64,000 nucleotides of DNA from Patescibacteria group bacterium (GTDB lineage Bacteria > Patescibacteriota > Patescibacteriia > CAIXNZ01). The position numbers were made by a program, and so were the translations under genes. The notes under the pieces were generated by a model. The model searched no databases, was not told where the DNA came from, and saw only the letters and a list, made by a program, of their open reading frames with translations. Every line of letters begins with the position of its first letter. Position 1 is the stretch's first letter. The stretch spans positions 568 through 64,567 of the forward strand of contig JAQTMG010000001.1 of the NCBI GenBank assembly GCA_028714455.1. Reading direction: 5' to 3'. Shown one piece after another: positions 5,221 to 61,002 of this stretch.

Positions 5221-5772
5221 ATGGCCAGCGAGAATAAAGAGCCTGTTAGCCTGCCAGTGTATAAGACCAAACCCGAATTCTTACTAACGTTATGGGACGT
5301 TAAATCCAGACATCTACAATTATTGCGTGATGCCGTACCCGTAGCGTTTCTCTCGCCCTCAAAAAGAAAAATACCGTTGTATAGTCGAGACCAATGCGAA
5401 CAAATCGATATAATCGGAGAACACGAGGGCTTACCCATCTATTGGAAAAAACCCGACGGACTATTTACCGAGTCAGATTTAAAGAAGATGGGATTTAAAT
5501 TAGTAGCCCAGGCCAAACCTACCGGCGTCATCAAATATGAGTTCGCACGAATGGGTAATTATCTCTACCCGATATCGCAATCAATCCCCAGGCTTAAACA
5601 TAAACATCTGACTAAATTCGAACGTATACTTTGGGCGGCGGATATCGAGTCGGATCTAAAAAATCTAAAACAGAGGGAAGTTGCAGAAAAATATGGCTGT
5701 TCTCTAAAGCTGGTGTCTAAACTGAAAAAAACATTTCAAAGGCTAAATCAAGGGAGAGAGGCTAGCGTTTAA
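5221..5772 (+). CDS. hypothetical protein with probable C-terminal HTH
   Basis: AAGGAGG SD, own promoter and terminator; KQREVAEKYGCSLKLVSKLK is HTH-like. Confidence 0.7.
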   Translation: MASENKEPVSLPVYKTKPEFLLTLWDVKSRHLQLLRDAVPVAFLSPSKRKIPLYSRDQCEQIDIIGEHEGLPIYWKKPDGLFTESDLKKMGFKLVAQAKPTGVIKYEFARMGNYLYPISQSIPRLKHKHLTKFERILWAADIESDLKNLKQREVAEKYGCSLKLVSKLKKTFQRLNQGREASV

Positions 5773-26156: not shown

Positions 26157-27101
26157 ATGGAAAAATCAAAGTTACAAAATTTAATCCGCGAGTTTCTCGA
26201 ATATCTCGAGATCGAAAAAGGCCGTTCCCGGATGACCATCAGAAATTATGAATTTTATTTACTGCGTTTTTTAACTTGGTCAAATTTTAAAAATCCAGAA
26301 CAAATCACCAGCGACACGGTGCGCAATTATCGGCTCTGGTTAAATCGCCAGAAAGATTCGACTGGACAATTTTTAAAGAAAAATACGCAAAACTATCACT
26401 TAATCGCCTTGCGCGCCTTTTTAAAATATCTGGCTAAGCGCGATATTAAGACTTTGCCGCCGGAAAAAATTGAATTAGCCAAAATGCCAGACCGCCAGAT
26501 TGAATTTTTAGAAGGTTTTGATTTGGAAAACTTTATGGAAGCGCCAATGAAAGTTGAAGAACCGGAAATAATAAGATTGCGTGACAAATCAATTTTAGAA
26601 ACCTTGTTTTCAACCGGACTTCGTGTGTCAGAACTTTCCAATTTAAAAAAAGAGGTTGTTAATTTAAATAAAGATGAATTCACGGTCCGCGGCAAGGGTT
26701 CAAAGCTGCGCGTTGTTTTTCTTTCCAACCAAGCTAAATATTGGCTGAAAAAATATCTGGAAGCGCGAAAAGACATGTCGCAATTTCTATTTACCAATCA
26801 CGACAAAGCCGGTAACAAAAGAAATAAAAAGGGTGATGACAAACCTTTGACGCCGCGCAGTATTCAAAGAATCGTGGAAAAATATGCCAAGGTCGCGGGC
26901 ATCACCAAAAAAATCACGCCCCATGTCCTGCGACATTCTTTTGCCACTGATTTATTAATCAACGGCGCGGATATTCGTTCTGTCCAATCAATGCTGGGCC
27001 ATTCCAGCATCACCACGACTCAAATTTATACGCACATTACAGACAGGCAACTACGCGAAGTGTATAAAAATTTTCACGGCAAGAGAAGAAGAAAGGAATA
27101 A
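26157..27101 (+). CDS. XerC/XerD-like tyrosine recombinase
   Basis: RDKSILETLFSTGLRVSEL, VRGKGSK, HVLRHSFATDLL, LGHSSITTTQIYTH. Confidence 0.93.
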   Translation: MEKSKLQNLIREFLEYLEIEKGRSRMTIRNYEFYLLRFLTWSNFKNPEQITSDTVRNYRLWLNRQKDSTGQFLKKNTQNYHLIALRAFLKYLAKRDIKTLPPEKIELAKMPDRQIEFLEGFDLENFMEAPMKVEEPEIIRLRDKSILETLFSTGLRVSELSNLKKEVVNLNKDEFTVRGKGSKLRVVFLSNQAKYWLKKYLEARKDMSQFLFTNHDKAGNKRNKKGDDKPLTPRSIQRIVEKYAKVAGITKKITPHVLRHSFATDLLINGADIRSVQSMLGHSSITTTQIYTHITDRQLREVYKNFHGKRRRKE

Positions 27102-27207: not shown

Positions 27208-27357
27208 TTACTTGCGAATGGCCAGGAACCGCCAACTGCCAAGCCACTTACTGTCAACATTGTTCCAGTAGAGGTTGAGCTTGCGCTTGCCATCATTGAA
27301 GACCAGGCACGGACAGTTACGATTGCCGTTGTCATTGACCCAGACCGAGCCGAGATT
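27208..27357 (-). repeat. DGR template-repeat-like copy
   Basis: 150-nt ungapped match to the 3' end of 27682-28296; AAY-rich; by hand 33 mismatches, 20 at adenines of this copy. Confidence 0.8.
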
Positions 27358-27681
27358 ATACAGAATACCGCCAAAGCCACTGCCCATTGAGTACTCTCTG
27401 GACTGTATTTTATGCGGGAGCATCCTCCCTTGATATTCTGTACCAAGTATTTTCATTTTTAGAAATACCAAATGTATGCTAAGCCAAGACGTGTCCTGAC
27501 CTATTCTAACGAATTTAGTATTCTAGATTTCAACCGCCCAAAGCCGTGACCGTGGGCTGATTCGTTTACTATCCATAAAAAATTATAGCACAAAAAAAAC
27601 ACCGCGCAGATATTATCCACGCGGTGATATGATTTGCAAGTGTCCAAGTGCCAAGAGCTCAAGGTTCCAAGAATCCAAGAA

Positions 27682-28296
27682 CTACTTGCGGACGGCCAAG
27701 AAACGGCAACAGGCACCCCAATGACCGTCACCACCGAACCAATAGAGGAAGAGCTTGCGCTCGCCATCAGTGAAGTTCAGGTACGGACAGCTACGATTGC
27801 CGAAGGCATCGACCCAGACCGAGCCGAGAGCGACGATCGGAAACTCCCGTTGAACATCCGGGTTGGCCGCTCCAAAGGCGAGCAGGTGTTCAATGCTAGC
27901 CGGCTTAAGACCCAGACCGTCAAGATGCGCCAGCGCTTCTTTGGTCGTAGCGTCTTTGTTGAGATGAACCAGAACCAATTCGGCTTCTTGCTGACCGACG
28001 CCCTGGACAGGAAAGTGCTTGTCGCTGATGTCGTCATTGACCCAGGCATATTTGCCGAGCTTGATCATCTCGGTGAGCGTCTTGCCGTAGTCCACGACCA
28101 CTCTGTAGGTGTCGCTGGCTTTTTGCCGGCCGAACATGATCAGTTCGGCAACCTGCTTGACCAACTTGCTGTCAGTGAGCAGGCGGTGCAGATCGTCGTC
28201 GCCGCCGCCCAATTCCAGGACGGCATTTGTGATCGCTTGCATTATGGACCACATTTTGCCGGCGGCCTTCAAAAACTCGCTTTTCTTTCTTGCCAT
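27682..28296 (-). CDS. putative DGR target protein with C-terminal variable region (27682-27831)
   Basis: AAGGAGG SD before MARKKSEF; C-terminus FPIVALGSVWVD..GNR.CPYL....ERKL.L.W....W...CRFLAVRK resembles CPR DGR targets as I recall them; adjacent A-rich repeat. Confidence 0.8.
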   Translation of the reverse strand: MARKKSEFLKAAGKMWSIMQAITNAVLELGGGDDDLHRLLTDSKLVKQVAELIMFGRQKASDTYRVVVDYGKTLTEMIKLGKYAWVNDDISDKHFPVQGVGQQEAELVLVHLNKDATTKEALAHLDGLGLKPASIEHLLAFGAANPDVQREFPIVALGSVWVDAFGNRSCPYLNFTDGERKLFLYWFGGDGHWGACCRFLAVRK

Positions 28297-28645
28297 TGTC
28301 AAATCCTCCTTTGTCGCGCTTAGCGACTCCAGTGGCTTGCCCCTTGCTTTGACTTTCAAGGCCTAAGGCTTGCCAAGTATGCTTTCATACTATCATACTT
28401 TTATAATTTTGTCAATGATAACGATTCAAAAATTAGCTAATATTAAATAAATAAATTTTTTAGCTATCTTTAGACAATAAATCCAGGCAAAGTTGACTAA
28501 GACCAAAATTTTTGCTAAACTATATTATAATATAGCTCTGGGCTCGGAGCTTTGAGCTTAGAGCTTTTTAAATAAAACATTCTAAAATTGTTCCGAAGGG
28601 ATGCCTTTGGCATAAATTGTAAATTGAGAATTGTAAATTGTTTCA

Positions 28646-28711
28646 GACTCCGTAGTTTCCGCCAGAGGCGGACCACGAATCGAGCTTTGCTCTGGTTCGT
28701 GGCAATGGATA
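28646..28711 (+). pseudogene. 5' tRNA-Arg fragment interrupted by a 45-bp double hairpin
   Basis: GACTCCGTAGTT|insert 28658-28702|CAATGGATA versus intact GTCCTCGTAGTTCAATGGATA. Confidence 0.8.
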
Positions 28712-28728
28712 TCAAAAAATTAACACCT

Positions 28729-28800
28729 GTCCTCGTAGTTCAATGGATAGAACAAGAGCCTTCTAAGCTCTGGATTGGGGTTCGATTCCTCACGGGGACA
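28729..28800 (+). tRNA. tRNA-Arg(TCT)
   Basis: Cloverleaf, AGAGC-CTTCTAA-GCTCT anticodon arm, GGTTCGATTCC. Confidence 0.93.
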
Positions 28801-28805
28801 TCAGT

Positions 28806-28857
28806 GGTTCTCGGCCAAAGGCTGATCCGCCTCTGGCGGAGATTCCTGGCGGGGTCA
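28806..28857 (+). pseudogene. 3' tRNA fragment interrupted in the T loop by a 30-bp double hairpin
   Basis: GGTTC|TCGGCCAAAGGCTGATCCGCCTCTGGCGGA|GATTCCTGGCGGGGTCA. Confidence 0.7.
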
Positions 28858-28906: not shown

Positions 28907-29251
28907 ATGTTTGATTTTGAAAAACTTGAAGTTTATAAAAAAGCCAAAAATATAAATGTTGAAATTTCGGAATTTTTAAAATCTGCAAATGTAGATATTT
29001 TCCTGAATAATCAGTTGAAAAGAGCTTCGTTAAGCATATTATTGAATATTGCGGAAGGTAGCGGTAGATCAACAAAAAGAGATAAAAGAAATTTTTTTGT
29101 CATTGCTCGCGGTTCGGTCTTTGAGTGCACTTCAATTTTTGATCTATTATTCACAGAGAAAGAAATTGAAATTGAAAAATATAATTATTTTTACAATCAG
29201 CTTGAAGAGATTTCAAAAATGCTATACGGTCTAATCAAAACTCATGAATAA
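28907..29251 (+). CDS. four-helix bundle protein (23S rRNA IVS-protein family, Avd-like fold)
   Basis: FDFEKLEVYKK...QLKRASLSILLNIAEGSGR...FFVIARGSVFEC. Confidence 0.92.
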   Translation: MFDFEKLEVYKKAKNINVEISEFLKSANVDIFLNNQLKRASLSILLNIAEGSGRSTKRDKRNFFVIARGSVFECTSIFDLLFTEKEIEIEKYNYFYNQLEEISKMLYGLIKTHE

Positions 29252-43835: not shown

Positions 43836-43986
43836 ACCGCCTTCGTCCCGAACTATATCTCGCTTTGCTCAATAAGTTCGGGATAAATCTAATGGTTAGC
43901 CATAGTCCGCCGAAGCACGAAGTGCGAAGGCGGAGACACCGCGCTTTTCCGCCAGAGGCGGACCCGCCTACGGCGGGCAATGCGGT
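43836..43986 (+). pseudogene. 5' part of tRNA-Glu split by three hairpin insertions
   Basis: Removing the inserts gives 42/44 identity to the first 44 nt of tRNA-Glu at 44258. Confidence 0.85.
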
Positions 43987-49989: not shown

Positions 49990-52757
49990 TGCCAAAAGCT
50001 AAACAAAAATTTATTCTCATTGACGGGAACGCCATTGTTCACCGCGCTTTTCACGCTCTGCCGCCTTTTAAAACTAAGGAAGGCGAATTAGTCAACGCGG
50101 TTTATGGTTTCACCACCATATTTTTAAAAGCCCTGCGCGAAATCAAACCGCAATACGCGGCTGTCACTTTTGATAAGGCTAAAAAAACCTTTCGCAACGA
50201 TTTATATCCCGAGTACAAAGCCACCCGAGTTAAGGCACCGCAGGAACTTTATGATCAGATTCCTAAAATAAAAGAACTGCTCAAACTTTTTAACATACCG
50301 ATTTATGAAATCGAGGGGTTTGAGGCTGACGATGTCATCGGCACCATCAGTCATCTCAAGGGCGTTGACCGGCCAGACATTAAAACCGTAATCGTCACCG
50401 GCGACCTGGACACGCTCCAGCTAGTTGATGACAACACCGAAGTTTTCTCGCTCAAGCGCGGCGTTTCAGACACAATTATCTATGACGAAAAAACCGTTTC
50501 CCAAAGATACGAAGGTTTAAAACCCGACCAACTTATTGATTTTAAAGCGCTCAAGGGCGATCCTTCTGACAATATCCCGGGGGTAAAAGGCATCGGCGAC
50601 AAAACTGCCATCACGCTTCTCAACGAATTTAAGACCCTGGAAAATCTTTACAAAAATATCAACAGCCAAAAAATAACGGAATCTGTCAGAAAAAAATTGA
50701 TTGAACACAAAGATGAGTCCTTTTTGAGTAAAAAATTGGCCACCATTGTACTGGATGTGCCCATCAAATTTGAATTGGAAGACGCAAAAATTAAAAGTTA
50801 TGACAAGCAGGCAGTCATGGAACTTTTTAGAAAGTTTGCTTTCACCAGTTTGATCAATAAATTACCTCCCGAACTCGGGCGACCCGAGGCTGTTATGGTG
50901 AGCTTAGTCGAACCATCAGCCGAGGATAAAATCGTAAAGTTCAATTATCGACTAATAAAAACCGAAGTAGAGCTTGATAAACTAATCGCCGATTTAAATA
51001 AACAAAAAATAATCGCTTTTGACACCGAAACAACGGGATTAGATCCTTTTAGTGTTCAGATTCTGGGCGTTAGCTTTTCCTGGAAGGGTGGCGAGGCTTA
51101 TTACGTACCCGTCGCCGAAATTAAGGGCGAAGGCTTGTTTGAAAATATAAAAATCAAAGAAGACTGGCTTAATAAATTAAAGCCTATTTTAGAAAATCAA
51201 AATATTAAAAAAATCGGCTTTAACGTCAAATACGATTCAGAAGTCATGAGTAATTATGGAATCGAGGCCAAACCTCTATCCTTTGACCCCATGGTCGCTG
51301 ATTATTTATTAAGTCCGGGCATCAGGTCGCACGGCATTGATAATCTCTCCTTCACCGAATTCGGCCATCAAAAAATATCTTTTGACCAGCTCACTGGCGA
51401 AGGCAAAAATAAAATTTCCATTACCCAGGTGCCCCTAGAAAAATTATCTTATTATTCTTGTGAAGACGCTGATTTCGCTTTTCGTCTCTACGAAGTTTTA
51501 GAAAGTAAGCTAAAAAAAGAAAAGCTGGCAGAACTGTTTGAAAAAATAGAAATGCCGCTAATTCCGGTTCTGATTGAAATGGAAAAAAACGGCGTCTTGA
51601 TTGATTCTGCCTATCTCAAAAAATTTGACAAAGAATTAAAAGAGAAAATAAATCAGGTCTCCAAAAAAATCCACAAACTGGCTGGCGATAAATTTAACAT
51701 CTCCTCACCCAGTCAGCTGAAAGAAATTCTGTTCACCAAGCTTCAAATCTCAACCCAGGGCATTGGCCGAACCAAGACTGGCTTTTCCACGGCGGCCGGC
51801 GAATTGGAAAAATTAAAAGGCAGGCACGAAATAATTGATTATATCTCCAAATATCGCGAGCTGACTAAACTGCAAACGACTTACGTTGATTCACTGCCGC
51901 AACTGGTCAATAAAAAAACCGGCCGCGTGCACACCAGTTTTAATCAGACAATTACTGCCACGGGCCGTTTATCTTCTTCAAATCCAAATCTGCAAAATAT
52001 TCCCATCAAAACTAAATTGGGCAACAAAGTGCGCCGCGCTTTTATCGCCGAGAAGGGCAATAAGATTCTCTCGGCCGATTATTCGCAAATCGAATTAAGA
52101 ATCGCGGCCTCCATCTCCGAAGATAAAAATATGATTGACGCTTTTAAACGCGGCGATGACATTCACACCATTACCGCGGCCAAGATAAATGACGTAAAGC
52201 CGGAAGAAGTAACCAAAGAAATGCGCAGCCGCGCCAAGGCCGTTAATTTTGGCGTGCTTTATGGTATGGGCTCGAATGGCCTAGCTCAAAGAACGGGCAT
52301 CTCTCGCGAACGCGCCCAGGATTTTATCGCTAAATATTTTCAGGCCTTTCCCAAAATCAGAGAATATGTAAATGAAACAAAAGATTTTGTTTATAAAAAT
52401 GGCTATGTGGAAACTTTATTTGGTCGCAAGCGCTATTTGCCTGATATTCATTCTGGCGTGCCCAATATCGCGGCCACGGCCGAGCGCATGGCCATCAACA
52501 TGCCTATCCAAGGCACGGCCGCTGACTTGCTTAAACTGGCCATGATAGAAATCCACAAAAAACTTGCAGATGTTTCACCCAGATCAAAATTGATTATTCA
52601 AGTTCACGATGAATTGGTCTTTGAAGTGCCTGAAAAAGAAATAAAAAAAGTCGCCGGCTTTGTCAAAGAGACCATGGAAAGCGTCCATAAATTCAAATGT
52701 CCAATTTTAGCAGAAGTGGAGGTTGGAGACAATTGGGGTGAATTGGAAAAAATATAA
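49989..52757 (+). CDS. polA: DNA polymerase I
   Basis: 5'-3' exo (LIDGN, EADDVIG, GDPSDNIPGV), DTETTG, ADYSQIELR, QVHDEL. Confidence 0.98.
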   Translation: MPKAKQKFILIDGNAIVHRAFHALPPFKTKEGELVNAVYGFTTIFLKALREIKPQYAAVTFDKAKKTFRNDLYPEYKATRVKAPQELYDQIPKIKELLKLFNIPIYEIEGFEADDVIGTISHLKGVDRPDIKTVIVTGDLDTLQLVDDNTEVFSLKRGVSDTIIYDEKTVSQRYEGLKPDQLIDFKALKGDPSDNIPGVKGIGDKTAITLLNEFKTLENLYKNINSQKITESVRKKLIEHKDESFLSKKLATIVLDVPIKFELEDAKIKSYDKQAVMELFRKFAFTSLINKLPPELGRPEAVMVSLVEPSAEDKIVKFNYRLIKTEVELDKLIADLNKQKIIAFDTETTGLDPFSVQILGVSFSWKGGEAYYVPVAEIKGEGLFENIKIKEDWLNKLKPILENQNIKKIGFNVKYDSEVMSNYGIEAKPLSFDPMVADYLLSPGIRSHGIDNLSFTEFGHQKISFDQLTGEGKNKISITQVPLEKLSYYSCEDADFAFRLYEVLESKLKKEKLAELFEKIEMPLIPVLIEMEKNGVLIDSAYLKKFDKELKEKINQVSKKIHKLAGDKFNISSPSQLKEILFTKLQISTQGIGRTKTGFSTAAGELEKLKGRHEIIDYISKYRELTKLQTTYVDSLPQLVNKKTGRVHTSFNQTITATGRLSSSNPNLQNIPIKTKLGNKVRRAFIAEKGNKILSADYSQIELRIAASISEDKNMIDAFKRGDDIHTITAAKINDVKPEEVTKEMRSRAKAVNFGVLYGMGSNGLAQRTGISRERAQDFIAKYFQAFPKIREYVNETKDFVYKNGYVETLFGRKRYLPDIHSGVPNIAATAERMAINMPIQGTAADLLKLAMIEIHKKLADVSPRSKLIIQVHDELVFEVPEKEIKKVAGFVKETMESVHKFKCPILAEVEVGDNWGELEKI

Positions 52758-60484: not shown

Positions 60485-60669
60485 ATTTTCATGTTTTTGA
60501 AAACAATATATATAAATTTCCCGACTGGATTTGAACAATATCAAATTCGAGGGCCAAGAAATATATAGCCCTCGGGCAGATACAAGTTTATGTATAATTA
60601 GCAATAATCGTATTTAACGTTAAATCGATAAGTGCGATTATAATTCAGGCCTTACGCAGACTTGTATCT

Positions 60670-60735
60670 GCCCTCGTAGTTTCCGCCAGAGGCGGACCAC
60701 GAATCGAGCTTTGCTCTGGTTCGTGGCAATGGATA
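60670..60735 (+). pseudogene. 5' tRNA-Arg fragment interrupted by the same 45-bp double hairpin as at 28658
   Basis: GCCCTCGTAGTT|insert 60682-60726|CAATGGATA. Confidence 0.8.
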
Positions 60736-60752
60736 TCAAAAAATTAACACCT

Positions 60753-60824
60753 GCCCTCGTAGTTCAATGGATAGAACAAGGGACTCCTAAGCCTTAGATG
60801 GTGGTTCGATTCCTCCCGAGGGCA
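60753..60824 (+). tRNA. tRNA-Arg(CCT)
   Basis: GCCCTCG/CGAGGGC stem, CTCCTAA loop, GGTTCGATTCC. Confidence 0.9.
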
Positions 60825-61002
60825 TTAAATTGTGTATAATTGGCCAAGATAAAAAAGGGGCCAGCCCAGATACAAGTTTGTGTGTAGGCCTAAGAAAATG
60901 GGCCTGCCCCGATAAAAGTTTATGTGAAAAATAGTTTTATGCATTGTTTGTATTGCGTACGAAAAAATACGCTTCAAACATTGAGCACACAGACTTTTAT
61001 CG

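Follow-up and report, generated by a model that had tools for sequence, protein, structure and literature searches.

Two tRNA-Arg genes with different anticodons, CCT and TCT, lie in the window studied here (the whole stretch of 64,000 nucleotides from a Patescibacteria genome) and are preceded by the same leader: positions 60675–60753 are identical to positions 28651–28729 over 79 bp, at a spacing of 32,024 bp. What is this leader made of, and how could one and the same sequence come to stand in front of two different genes? Our analysis suggests that the leader duplicates the first 21 bases of a tRNA-Arg gene, with a double hairpin lodged inside the copy, and that the 79-bp identity is likely the result of recent ectopic gene conversion of one Arg leader by the other. 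We give this reading a probability of about 0.6.

The two leaders and their surroundings

The features of the two loci are listed below (the caret marks the point of insertion; G000 is the label of this genome, and G001 and G002 are congeners).

60570–60673, no strand assigned: separate inverted-repeat element, its right end overlapping the first bases of the CCT relic; a similar one lies ahead of the leaderless CCT gene of G002
60670–60681, plus strand: 5' relic of tRNA-Arg(CCT), nucleotides 1–12, same bases as the start of the intact gene
60682–60696, plus strand: hairpin A, the 15-bp palindrome conserved in the repeat family, at TT^CAA
60697–60726, plus strand: hairpin B, the variable second hairpin, 30 bp here and 15 bp in most family members
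60727–60735, plus strand: D-loop relic, tRNA nucleotides 13–21
60736–60752, plus strand: AT-rich 17-bp spacer, within G000 only at the two Arg loci
60753–60824, plus strand: intact tRNA-Arg(CCT), its 72 nt identical to the gene of G001
28646–28657, plus strand: 5' relic at the TCT locus, equal to the 5' end of tRNA-Arg(TCT) in G001 and G002 and unlike that of the adjacent intact gene
28658–28728, plus strand: second copy of hairpin A, hairpin B, D-loop piece and spacer, identical to 60682–60752
28729–28800, plus strand: intact tRNA-Arg(TCT), anticodon arm as in G001, acceptor stem and T-arm different
28806–28857, plus strand: 3' relic of the older tRNA-Arg(TCT), comprising T-loop and acceptor end and interrupted within the T-loop by a 30-bp double hairpin
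28811–28840, minus orientation: the 30-bp double hairpin inside this 3' relic

The order of parts is the same at both loci, namely tRNA nucleotides 1–12, hairpin A of 15 bp, hairpin B of 30 bp, nucleotides 13–21, the 17-bp spacer and a complete tRNA. The 45-mer insert folds into two adjacent hairpins (z −6.25), and both tRNAs behind the leaders are intact according to ARAGORN and Rfam (62.1 and 64.7 bits), which confirms the observation of the first-pass annotation that one 79-bp sequence precedes differing tRNAs. The spacer that it described is present as well; it had been given 18 nt, the extra base being the last one of the D-loop piece. With one mismatch included, the Arg leaders agree over 106 bp, 26 identical bp lying beyond the mismatch, and this sole difference falls on tRNA position 2 (C at the CCT gene, T at the TCT gene). 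The genome comprises 893,211 bp in 16 contigs (completeness score 100%), and the 79-mer, its second hairpin and its spacer are found in it at two places each, both being the Arg loci. A third Arg gene of this genome (GCG) has the same design with another insert.

A tRNA intron was rejected, as the interrupted copy stops at nucleotide 21, a complete gene follows and no intron family was found; a known RNA family was rejected as well, since Rfam finds only tRNA in the window. Prophages and genomic islands that target tRNA genes restore the gene they enter and leave a displaced fragment, usually the 3' end, beside the intact gene. The present unit differs from them in its length of 83 bp, in containing no integrase, and in that the 5' end is displaced, the displaced piece being split by the hairpins. 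An integrative element with attL and attR was rejected because 71 non-coding bp lie between the repeats and the tyrosine recombinase gene (26157–27101) is outside them. Such relics may be misread as prophage attachment sites, introns or extra tRNAs.

Comparison with the congeners revealed both empty and otherwise filled sites. The leader is absent from the TCT locus of G001 and from the CCT locus of G002, while the TCT locus of G002 and the CCT locus of G001 are filled with hairpin A at the identical point, hairpin B and the spacer being different ones. The empty sites show that each Arg locus of G000 carries 83 extra bp at the same TT^CAA bond. The 71-bp insert plus spacer is found whole in only one of 14 family genomes, namely G000 (G008 holds a part of hairpin B elsewhere), so the identity of the two leaders is recent and private to this genome.

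At the TCT locus, the acceptor strand of the 3' relic is complementary to the 5' relic and not to the 5' end of the working gene. In G001, which has a single TCT gene, the ends of this gene equal the two relics of G000, and its anticodon arm equals that of the working gene of G000. On the sequence evidence, 28806–28857 is the former 3' end of the same TCT gene, and the working gene looks like a mosaic of new ends around the old anticodon arm. In the 5' acceptor strand the working gene differs by 1 nt from the CCT allele and by 3 nt from the TCT allele of the congeners, and it agrees with the GCG allele seen in 6 of 11 family genomes; in the T-arm it is 1 nt away from the GCG T-arm of the genus. 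New ends in the working gene with the old ends alongside make visible a route by which tRNA acceptor stems and T-arms may be exchanged, and similar scars beside many tRNA genes of the lineage likely let tRNA ends be swapped.

Several other features of the two neighborhoods were observed. The inverted-repeat family represented at 60570–60673 and 60838–60997 has ends that overlap the first bases of tRNAs and precedes Arg(CCT), Ala, Met, Leu and Gly genes. In tRNA-Arg(CCT) there is an A31–G39 mismatch in the anticodon stem and a T–T mismatch in the T-stem (window 60779–60817); these do not reflect recent decay, because the gene is identical in G001 and A31–G39 recurs in most CCT genes of the family. 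A four-helix-bundle (23S rRNA IVP) gene lies between tRNA-Arg(TCT) and tRNA-His (28907–29251), and an ORF start resembling it follows the TCT gene in G001 and G012 and is absent in G002. Two ORFs with similar C-terminal sequence (27208–27471 and 27682–28359, minus strand), the longer one without a Pfam match, sit between the tyrosine recombinase gene and tRNA-Arg(TCT).

A hairpin family with a loose TT^VAW target

The 15-mer of hairpin A has four copies in the window, against 0.10 expected by chance, and six exact copies genome-wide. The 30-bp double-hairpin pattern was matched in 27 of 46 genomes, with a maximum of 39 per genome when both strands are counted. To describe the insertion sites, we tabulated the flanks of 86 distinct sites from 79 loci among the matches listed for eight hairpin-bearing relatives and G000. 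TT abuts the element at 68 of the 86 sites, compared with 1,259 of 5,332 background positions (24%). Among 38 clearly oriented sites, position −2 is a T in 32 cases, position −1 is a T in 30 and position +2 is an A in 31. Over the 86 sites, position +4 has no preference (A24 G12 T32 C18). An abutting direct repeat is absent at 72 of the 86 sites, and the 7- and 14-nt repeats at five sites appear to lie in heptamer arrays. The preference is thus for a short TT^VAW, loose and without target duplication, and this motif is provided by the D-arm, by the Glu anticodon loop and by the T-loop on either strand.

The first-pass annotation had proposed sequence-specific insertion at TT^CAATG and flank logos as a check. 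A target preference is indeed present; the strict motif was rejected by the flank table, the commonest flank 5-mer, TT^CAA, accounting for only 13 of 86 sites. At the tRNA copies TT^CAATG is supplied by the tRNA D-arm and the Glu anticodon loop, and only 27 of the 86 sites lie near a tRNA (within 350 bp); eight lie by a possible start codon and 51 elsewhere, and the hairpin stands without any tRNA piece at 59. The copy at 28811, which had been taken for one in an odd context (TTC^GATT), is a minus-strand copy, and its site, which reads TC^GAA on its own strand, fits the general motif. The annotation had also included the tRNA-Glu copy, where two features were distinguished.

43837–43986, plus strand: tRNA-Glu 5' relic with three hairpin inserts, the third of which (43948–43977) belongs to the present hairpin family and is placed at TT^CAA of the anticodon loop
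43996–44250, plus strand: GIY-YIG nuclease gene, 84 aa, flanked by the Glu relic and the intact tRNA-Glu; a candidate mobilizer

The Glu copy belongs to the same family and has the TT^CAA site, but has only the first 15-bp hairpin in common with the Arg inserts, its insert being 30 bp long with another second hairpin.

A DDE-type MITE, with terminal inverted repeats and target-site duplication, was rejected because of the 72 sites without an abutting repeat. IS91-family rolling-circle elements are described as making no target duplication and as taking adjacent DNA along in one-ended transposition, and their reported CTTG and GTTC targets resemble the opposite-strand reading of the hairpin sites (PMC13181058). 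The site preference found here is looser, however: the sites do not follow a strict CTTG or GTTC, and position +4 is unselective.

The hairpins resemble REP, REPIN and BIME repeats in being short GC-rich palindromes, often paired, multi-copy, mostly intergenic and sometimes in frame with genes; as in REPs, the short multi-copy palindrome is able to form a stable hairpin in single-stranded DNA. For those repeats, REP-associated Y1 tyrosine transposases and families tagged with GTAG and CGTC have been described (PMC3733652, PMC3184786). The unit here, in contrast, lacks a GTAG or CGTC tag, the GTAG ahead of it being tRNA nucleotides 7–10. No such tag is conserved at the palindrome foot in the flank tables of 86 sites, which show only TT before and VAW after the element, and no Y1 gene adjoins the copies examined here. 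The sequence TCCGCC is absent from the main text of PMC3733652, and recurrent placement in duplicated tRNA ends is not seen in the available text of PMC3733652 and PMC3184786. The double hairpin is REP-like, behaving as a REP-type repeat without the tag and, at the copies examined, without a linked Y1 gene.

Outside tRNA genes, the 30-bp double hairpin was observed directly after possible start codons or inside ORFs (C12:2048, C3:96059 and C8:4087 of G000), where it would contribute ten in-frame codons. Rickettsia palindromic elements likewise add in-frame codons. At C1:74980–75060 of G000 (minus strand), a presumed 16S rRNA 5' end, identified by eye, is duplicated, and its upstream copy holds the 30-bp double hairpin at TT^GAT.

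Scarred tRNA duplicates across the lineage

Hairpin A at tRNA position 12/13 was found in 44 of 401 genomes of the class, and in one of 401 with the reversed control. A metagenome scan yielded 72 distinct loci among the matches listed (80 of 90 stretches, eight being duplicates). Among these loci an intact tRNA-Arg lies at most 250 nt downstream in 62, only upstream in two, and on neither side in eight. The Arg identity of the relic is partly built into this result, because the pattern was made on the Arg D-arm; the intact gene behind it is not. When genome and metagenome insertions in the D-arm were pooled, 101 of 114 distinct loci among the matches listed had an intact tRNA within 260 nt downstream, 83 for Arg and 18 for 11 other amino acids, i.e. 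12 amino-acid types. Hairpin-scarred tRNA duplicates are thus a lineage-wide pattern, which appears undescribed in the literature searched: a partial search returned no description of hairpin-scarred duplicated tRNA ends.

The ends of relic and gene were compared at 62 loci among the matches listed: the acceptor strand of the relic equals that of the intact gene at 26 loci, which span many different alleles, and differs at 36, where the relic makes 41 mismatches with the 3' strand, as against 0. The upstream flank is duplicated too in nine of the 101 loci (36 of 10,100 cross-pairs), and 18 of the 101 have inverted repeats of at least 8 bp on both sides of the intact gene. Flank duplication, differing ends and brackets point to several routes to a spare end, namely local tandem duplication, end replacement and whole-tRNA insertion. 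In G000 itself, an 11-mer taken from the gene recurs in the flanks of 23 of 46 tRNAs, compared with 114 of 1,978 control pairs (5.8%).

Spacers are shared within genomes in two of 25 pairs and between genomes in one of 1,010; both within-genome pairs were chosen knowing the present case, one being the Arg finding itself and the other fetched by likeness. A strict pattern scan of contigs gave only three loci, all in Patescibacteria records, and is too narrow for counts. The hairpin pair is present in 14 stretches of viral contigs, but no tRNA lies within 600 bp in any of them, and the search thus yielded no phage carrier of the leader.

Three further arrangements were seen in G000. At C5 (about 50600–50900) one inverted-repeat end brackets a GIY-YIG gene inside a presumed 23S rRNA. 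The same inverted-repeat end brackets intact tRNAs nested in split tRNAs of the same type (tRNA-Tyr and tRNA-Thr(GGT) on C6, tRNA-Ser(TGA) on C4). On C1 there are two Pro-Gly pairs of tRNA-Gly(TCC) and tRNA-Pro(TGG) (5470–5642 and 72230–72388), with identical tRNA-Pro and different tRNA-Gly alleles.

Origin of the shared leader

The proposed origin has three steps. In the first, a non-coding double hairpin of 30–45 bp, with the site preference seen in the flank table, would have moved into a TT^VAW site; as the D-arm, the anticodon loop and the T-loop happen to hold this motif, tRNA genes may serve as targets. In the second, the hairpin would survive only in a redundant copy of a gene end with the intact gene directly behind it. 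This co-occurrence is what we observe, and its cause would be that a hit in a single-copy tRNA gene is lethal, so that the survivors carry the hairpin in a spare tRNA end. Some of the duplicates probably arose locally, in tandem, and others may have come from other loci or cells. In the third, recombination between the Arg isoacceptors, which have the D-arm in common, would have copied hairpin B, the spacer and probably the tRNA start through homology of some 24 bp to the left and 26 bp to the right. This presupposes leaders with hairpin A at both loci beforehand, which is probable in view of the two congeners. The homology arms are short but a plausible basis for ectopic recombination, and RecA and ComEC are encoded in G000.

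Gene conversion as the copying step is likewise inferred, and recent homology-driven transfer of the leader, which the first-pass annotation had suggested, holds up as the best reading, the whole unit being private to G000 and the congeners having other leaders or none. The direction from CCT to TCT is slightly favored by the sequences, given the new 5' allele of the TCT gene and the spacer ending as in the CCT leader of G001; the reverse, via a T–G wobble, is possible. Support also comes from the two Gln loci of G000, tRNA-Gln(TTG) at C3:33926–34290 and tRNA-Gln(CTG) at C8:16350–16710, which have a common 134-bp tandem leader and a trailer of about 100 bp, yet each relic keeps the bases of its own gene on both sides of the insert. 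Several results count against conversion: the position-2 difference requires one extra change in either direction, spacers are rarely shared within a genome (the two of 25 pairs given above), and among 30 genes the Arg pairs with different anticodons are equally alike whether they come from the same genome or from different ones. General concerted evolution of Arg isoacceptors was rejected, as no within-genome homogenization is seen among these 30 genes. Short gene conversion between two tRNA loci is by itself a modest event; its setting in a streamlined genome is less ordinary.

The same arrangement could be explained by a mobile element consisting of the whole 83-bp unit, i.e. hairpins, D-loop piece, spacer and replacement tRNA nucleotides 1–12, which we regard as a tentative alternative. 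Two cuts by a single-strand nuclease or HUH transposase, each directly behind a TT, one at the base of hairpin A and the other in the intact gene, would release a small circle that is inserted at TT^CAA of another tRNA-Arg and rebuilds the interrupted gene. The two 83-bp units are 1 nt apart, their ends are the same relative to the empty sites, and target duplication is absent; head-to-tail multimers of such units occur at L107, L117, L077 and a tRNA-Met locus. A transposing unit would account equally well for these multimers and for the fact that both gains of 83 bp have the one TT^CAA bond as their start and end. L117 and L122 also have related units, with the same short hairpin B core and a similar spacer, beside a CCT gene and a TCT gene, and the 36 loci with a differing acceptor strand show that new ends do arrive from elsewhere. 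On the other hand, unit length varies from 47 to 240 nt, the new 5' end is that of the local relic at the 26 remaining loci with their many alleles, and the Gln relics track their own gene on either side of the insert.

The inserting enzyme would act in trans; candidates are single-strand nucleases of the small GIY-YIG type and Y1 HUH transposases. G000 has five Y1_Tnp and eight GIY-YIG matches, and GIY-YIG genes adjoin some hairpin copies. In favor of a mobile unit, five of the seven small GIY-YIG genes lie beside a tRNA or in 23S rRNA. Against it, the ORFs adjoining hairpin copies (68 of 94 scanned) included three GIY-YIG genes and no transposase, and hairpin counts, which correlate with those of Y1 (rho 0.54) and of GIY-YIG (rho 0.43) in 46 related genomes that as kin are not independent, no longer do so outside the family (p 0.11 and 0.25). 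This hairpin is absent from the 260-bp flanks of the five Y1 genes of G000, four of the 27 hairpin-positive genomes have no Y1 match, and a Y2 transposase was found in none of 46 genomes, the control genomes being also silent.

Small single-domain GIY-YIG genes beside hairpin repeats are known from the Ssn/SRM system, in which SsnA is reported to cleave single-stranded DNA a few bases upstream of its hairpin (PMC11893778), and this cleavage is a possible model for the TT^hairpin junction. The degenerate SRM motif is absent from both Arg loci and from the Glu locus, and the main text of that paper, which demonstrates cleavage rather than insertion, mentions neither tRNA nor Patescibacteria and raises the spread of hairpins by their GIY-YIG nucleases as a hypothesis only (PMC11893778). 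The present finding bears on that question, and a defined short target with few candidate enzymes offers a case for studying how REP-like repeats insert. A precedent for a GIY-YIG nuclease moving tRNA segments is SegB of phages T4/T6, described as a free-standing homing endonuclease in tRNA clusters that recognizes a T-arm motif and, by way of recombination, drives tRNA segments to be transferred or amplified in tandem (PMC2330249, PMC13096335). SegB differs, according to the same sources, in being a phage dsDNA nuclease with a 27-bp site and a cut away from the T-loop, whereas the unit here is non-coding, located in the D-arm and equipped with a hairpin repeat.

In its widest form, which seems rather doubtful to us, the idea of a mobile unit would mean that Patescibacteria hold protein-free mini-elements of 50–150 bp that enter the D-arms of essential single-copy tRNA genes with a replacement tRNA end and are mobilized in trans by small GIY-YIG single-strand nucleases. 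If so, the mini-elements would rebuild tRNAs as mosaics, swapping acceptor halves between isoacceptors as at the TCT locus, and would rank among the smallest selfish elements that restore the gene they enter.

It is improbable that the leader, instead of being a relic overwritten by gene conversion, is a selected functional RNA or DNA, such as an aid to processing or transcription or a decoy for tRNA-targeting nucleases. The recurrence of the position 12/13 insertion in the class could be understood in this way, as could the ability of the TCT relics with the two inverted hairpin-A copies to pair into a long helix around the cloverleaf. However, some congener loci have a leader and others none, there is free variation in hairpin B, in the spacer and in length, the same hairpin is found at unrelated intergenic sites and start codons, neither leader contains a promoter-like or terminator-like site, and tRNA is the only Rfam family of the window.

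Last, an assembly artefact behind one leader copy, although no listed contig spans a whole locus and 60856–60975, after the CCT gene, has no cover in four runs, is very improbable, because the repeat forms a unitig of its own, about twice as deep as the flanks and joined to two sequences on either side, as expected of a two-copy repeat, and the same design is present at both loci in congeners. The evidence comes from run X1, which may be the source sample: a 79-nt unitig spans exactly the repeat at depth 22.9, the unique left flanks have 10.6 each, and the position-2 exits have 11.8 and 9.8. Being unitigs, these data support two copies and do not prove which left flank is paired with which tRNA. 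Misassembly, which the first-pass annotation had named as a possible refutation, is hence unlikely. X1–X3 belong to one study, and in run X2 of this study record 9 contains a variant leader, aligned to window 60660–60735 with nine differences and other flanks, from another strain or species.
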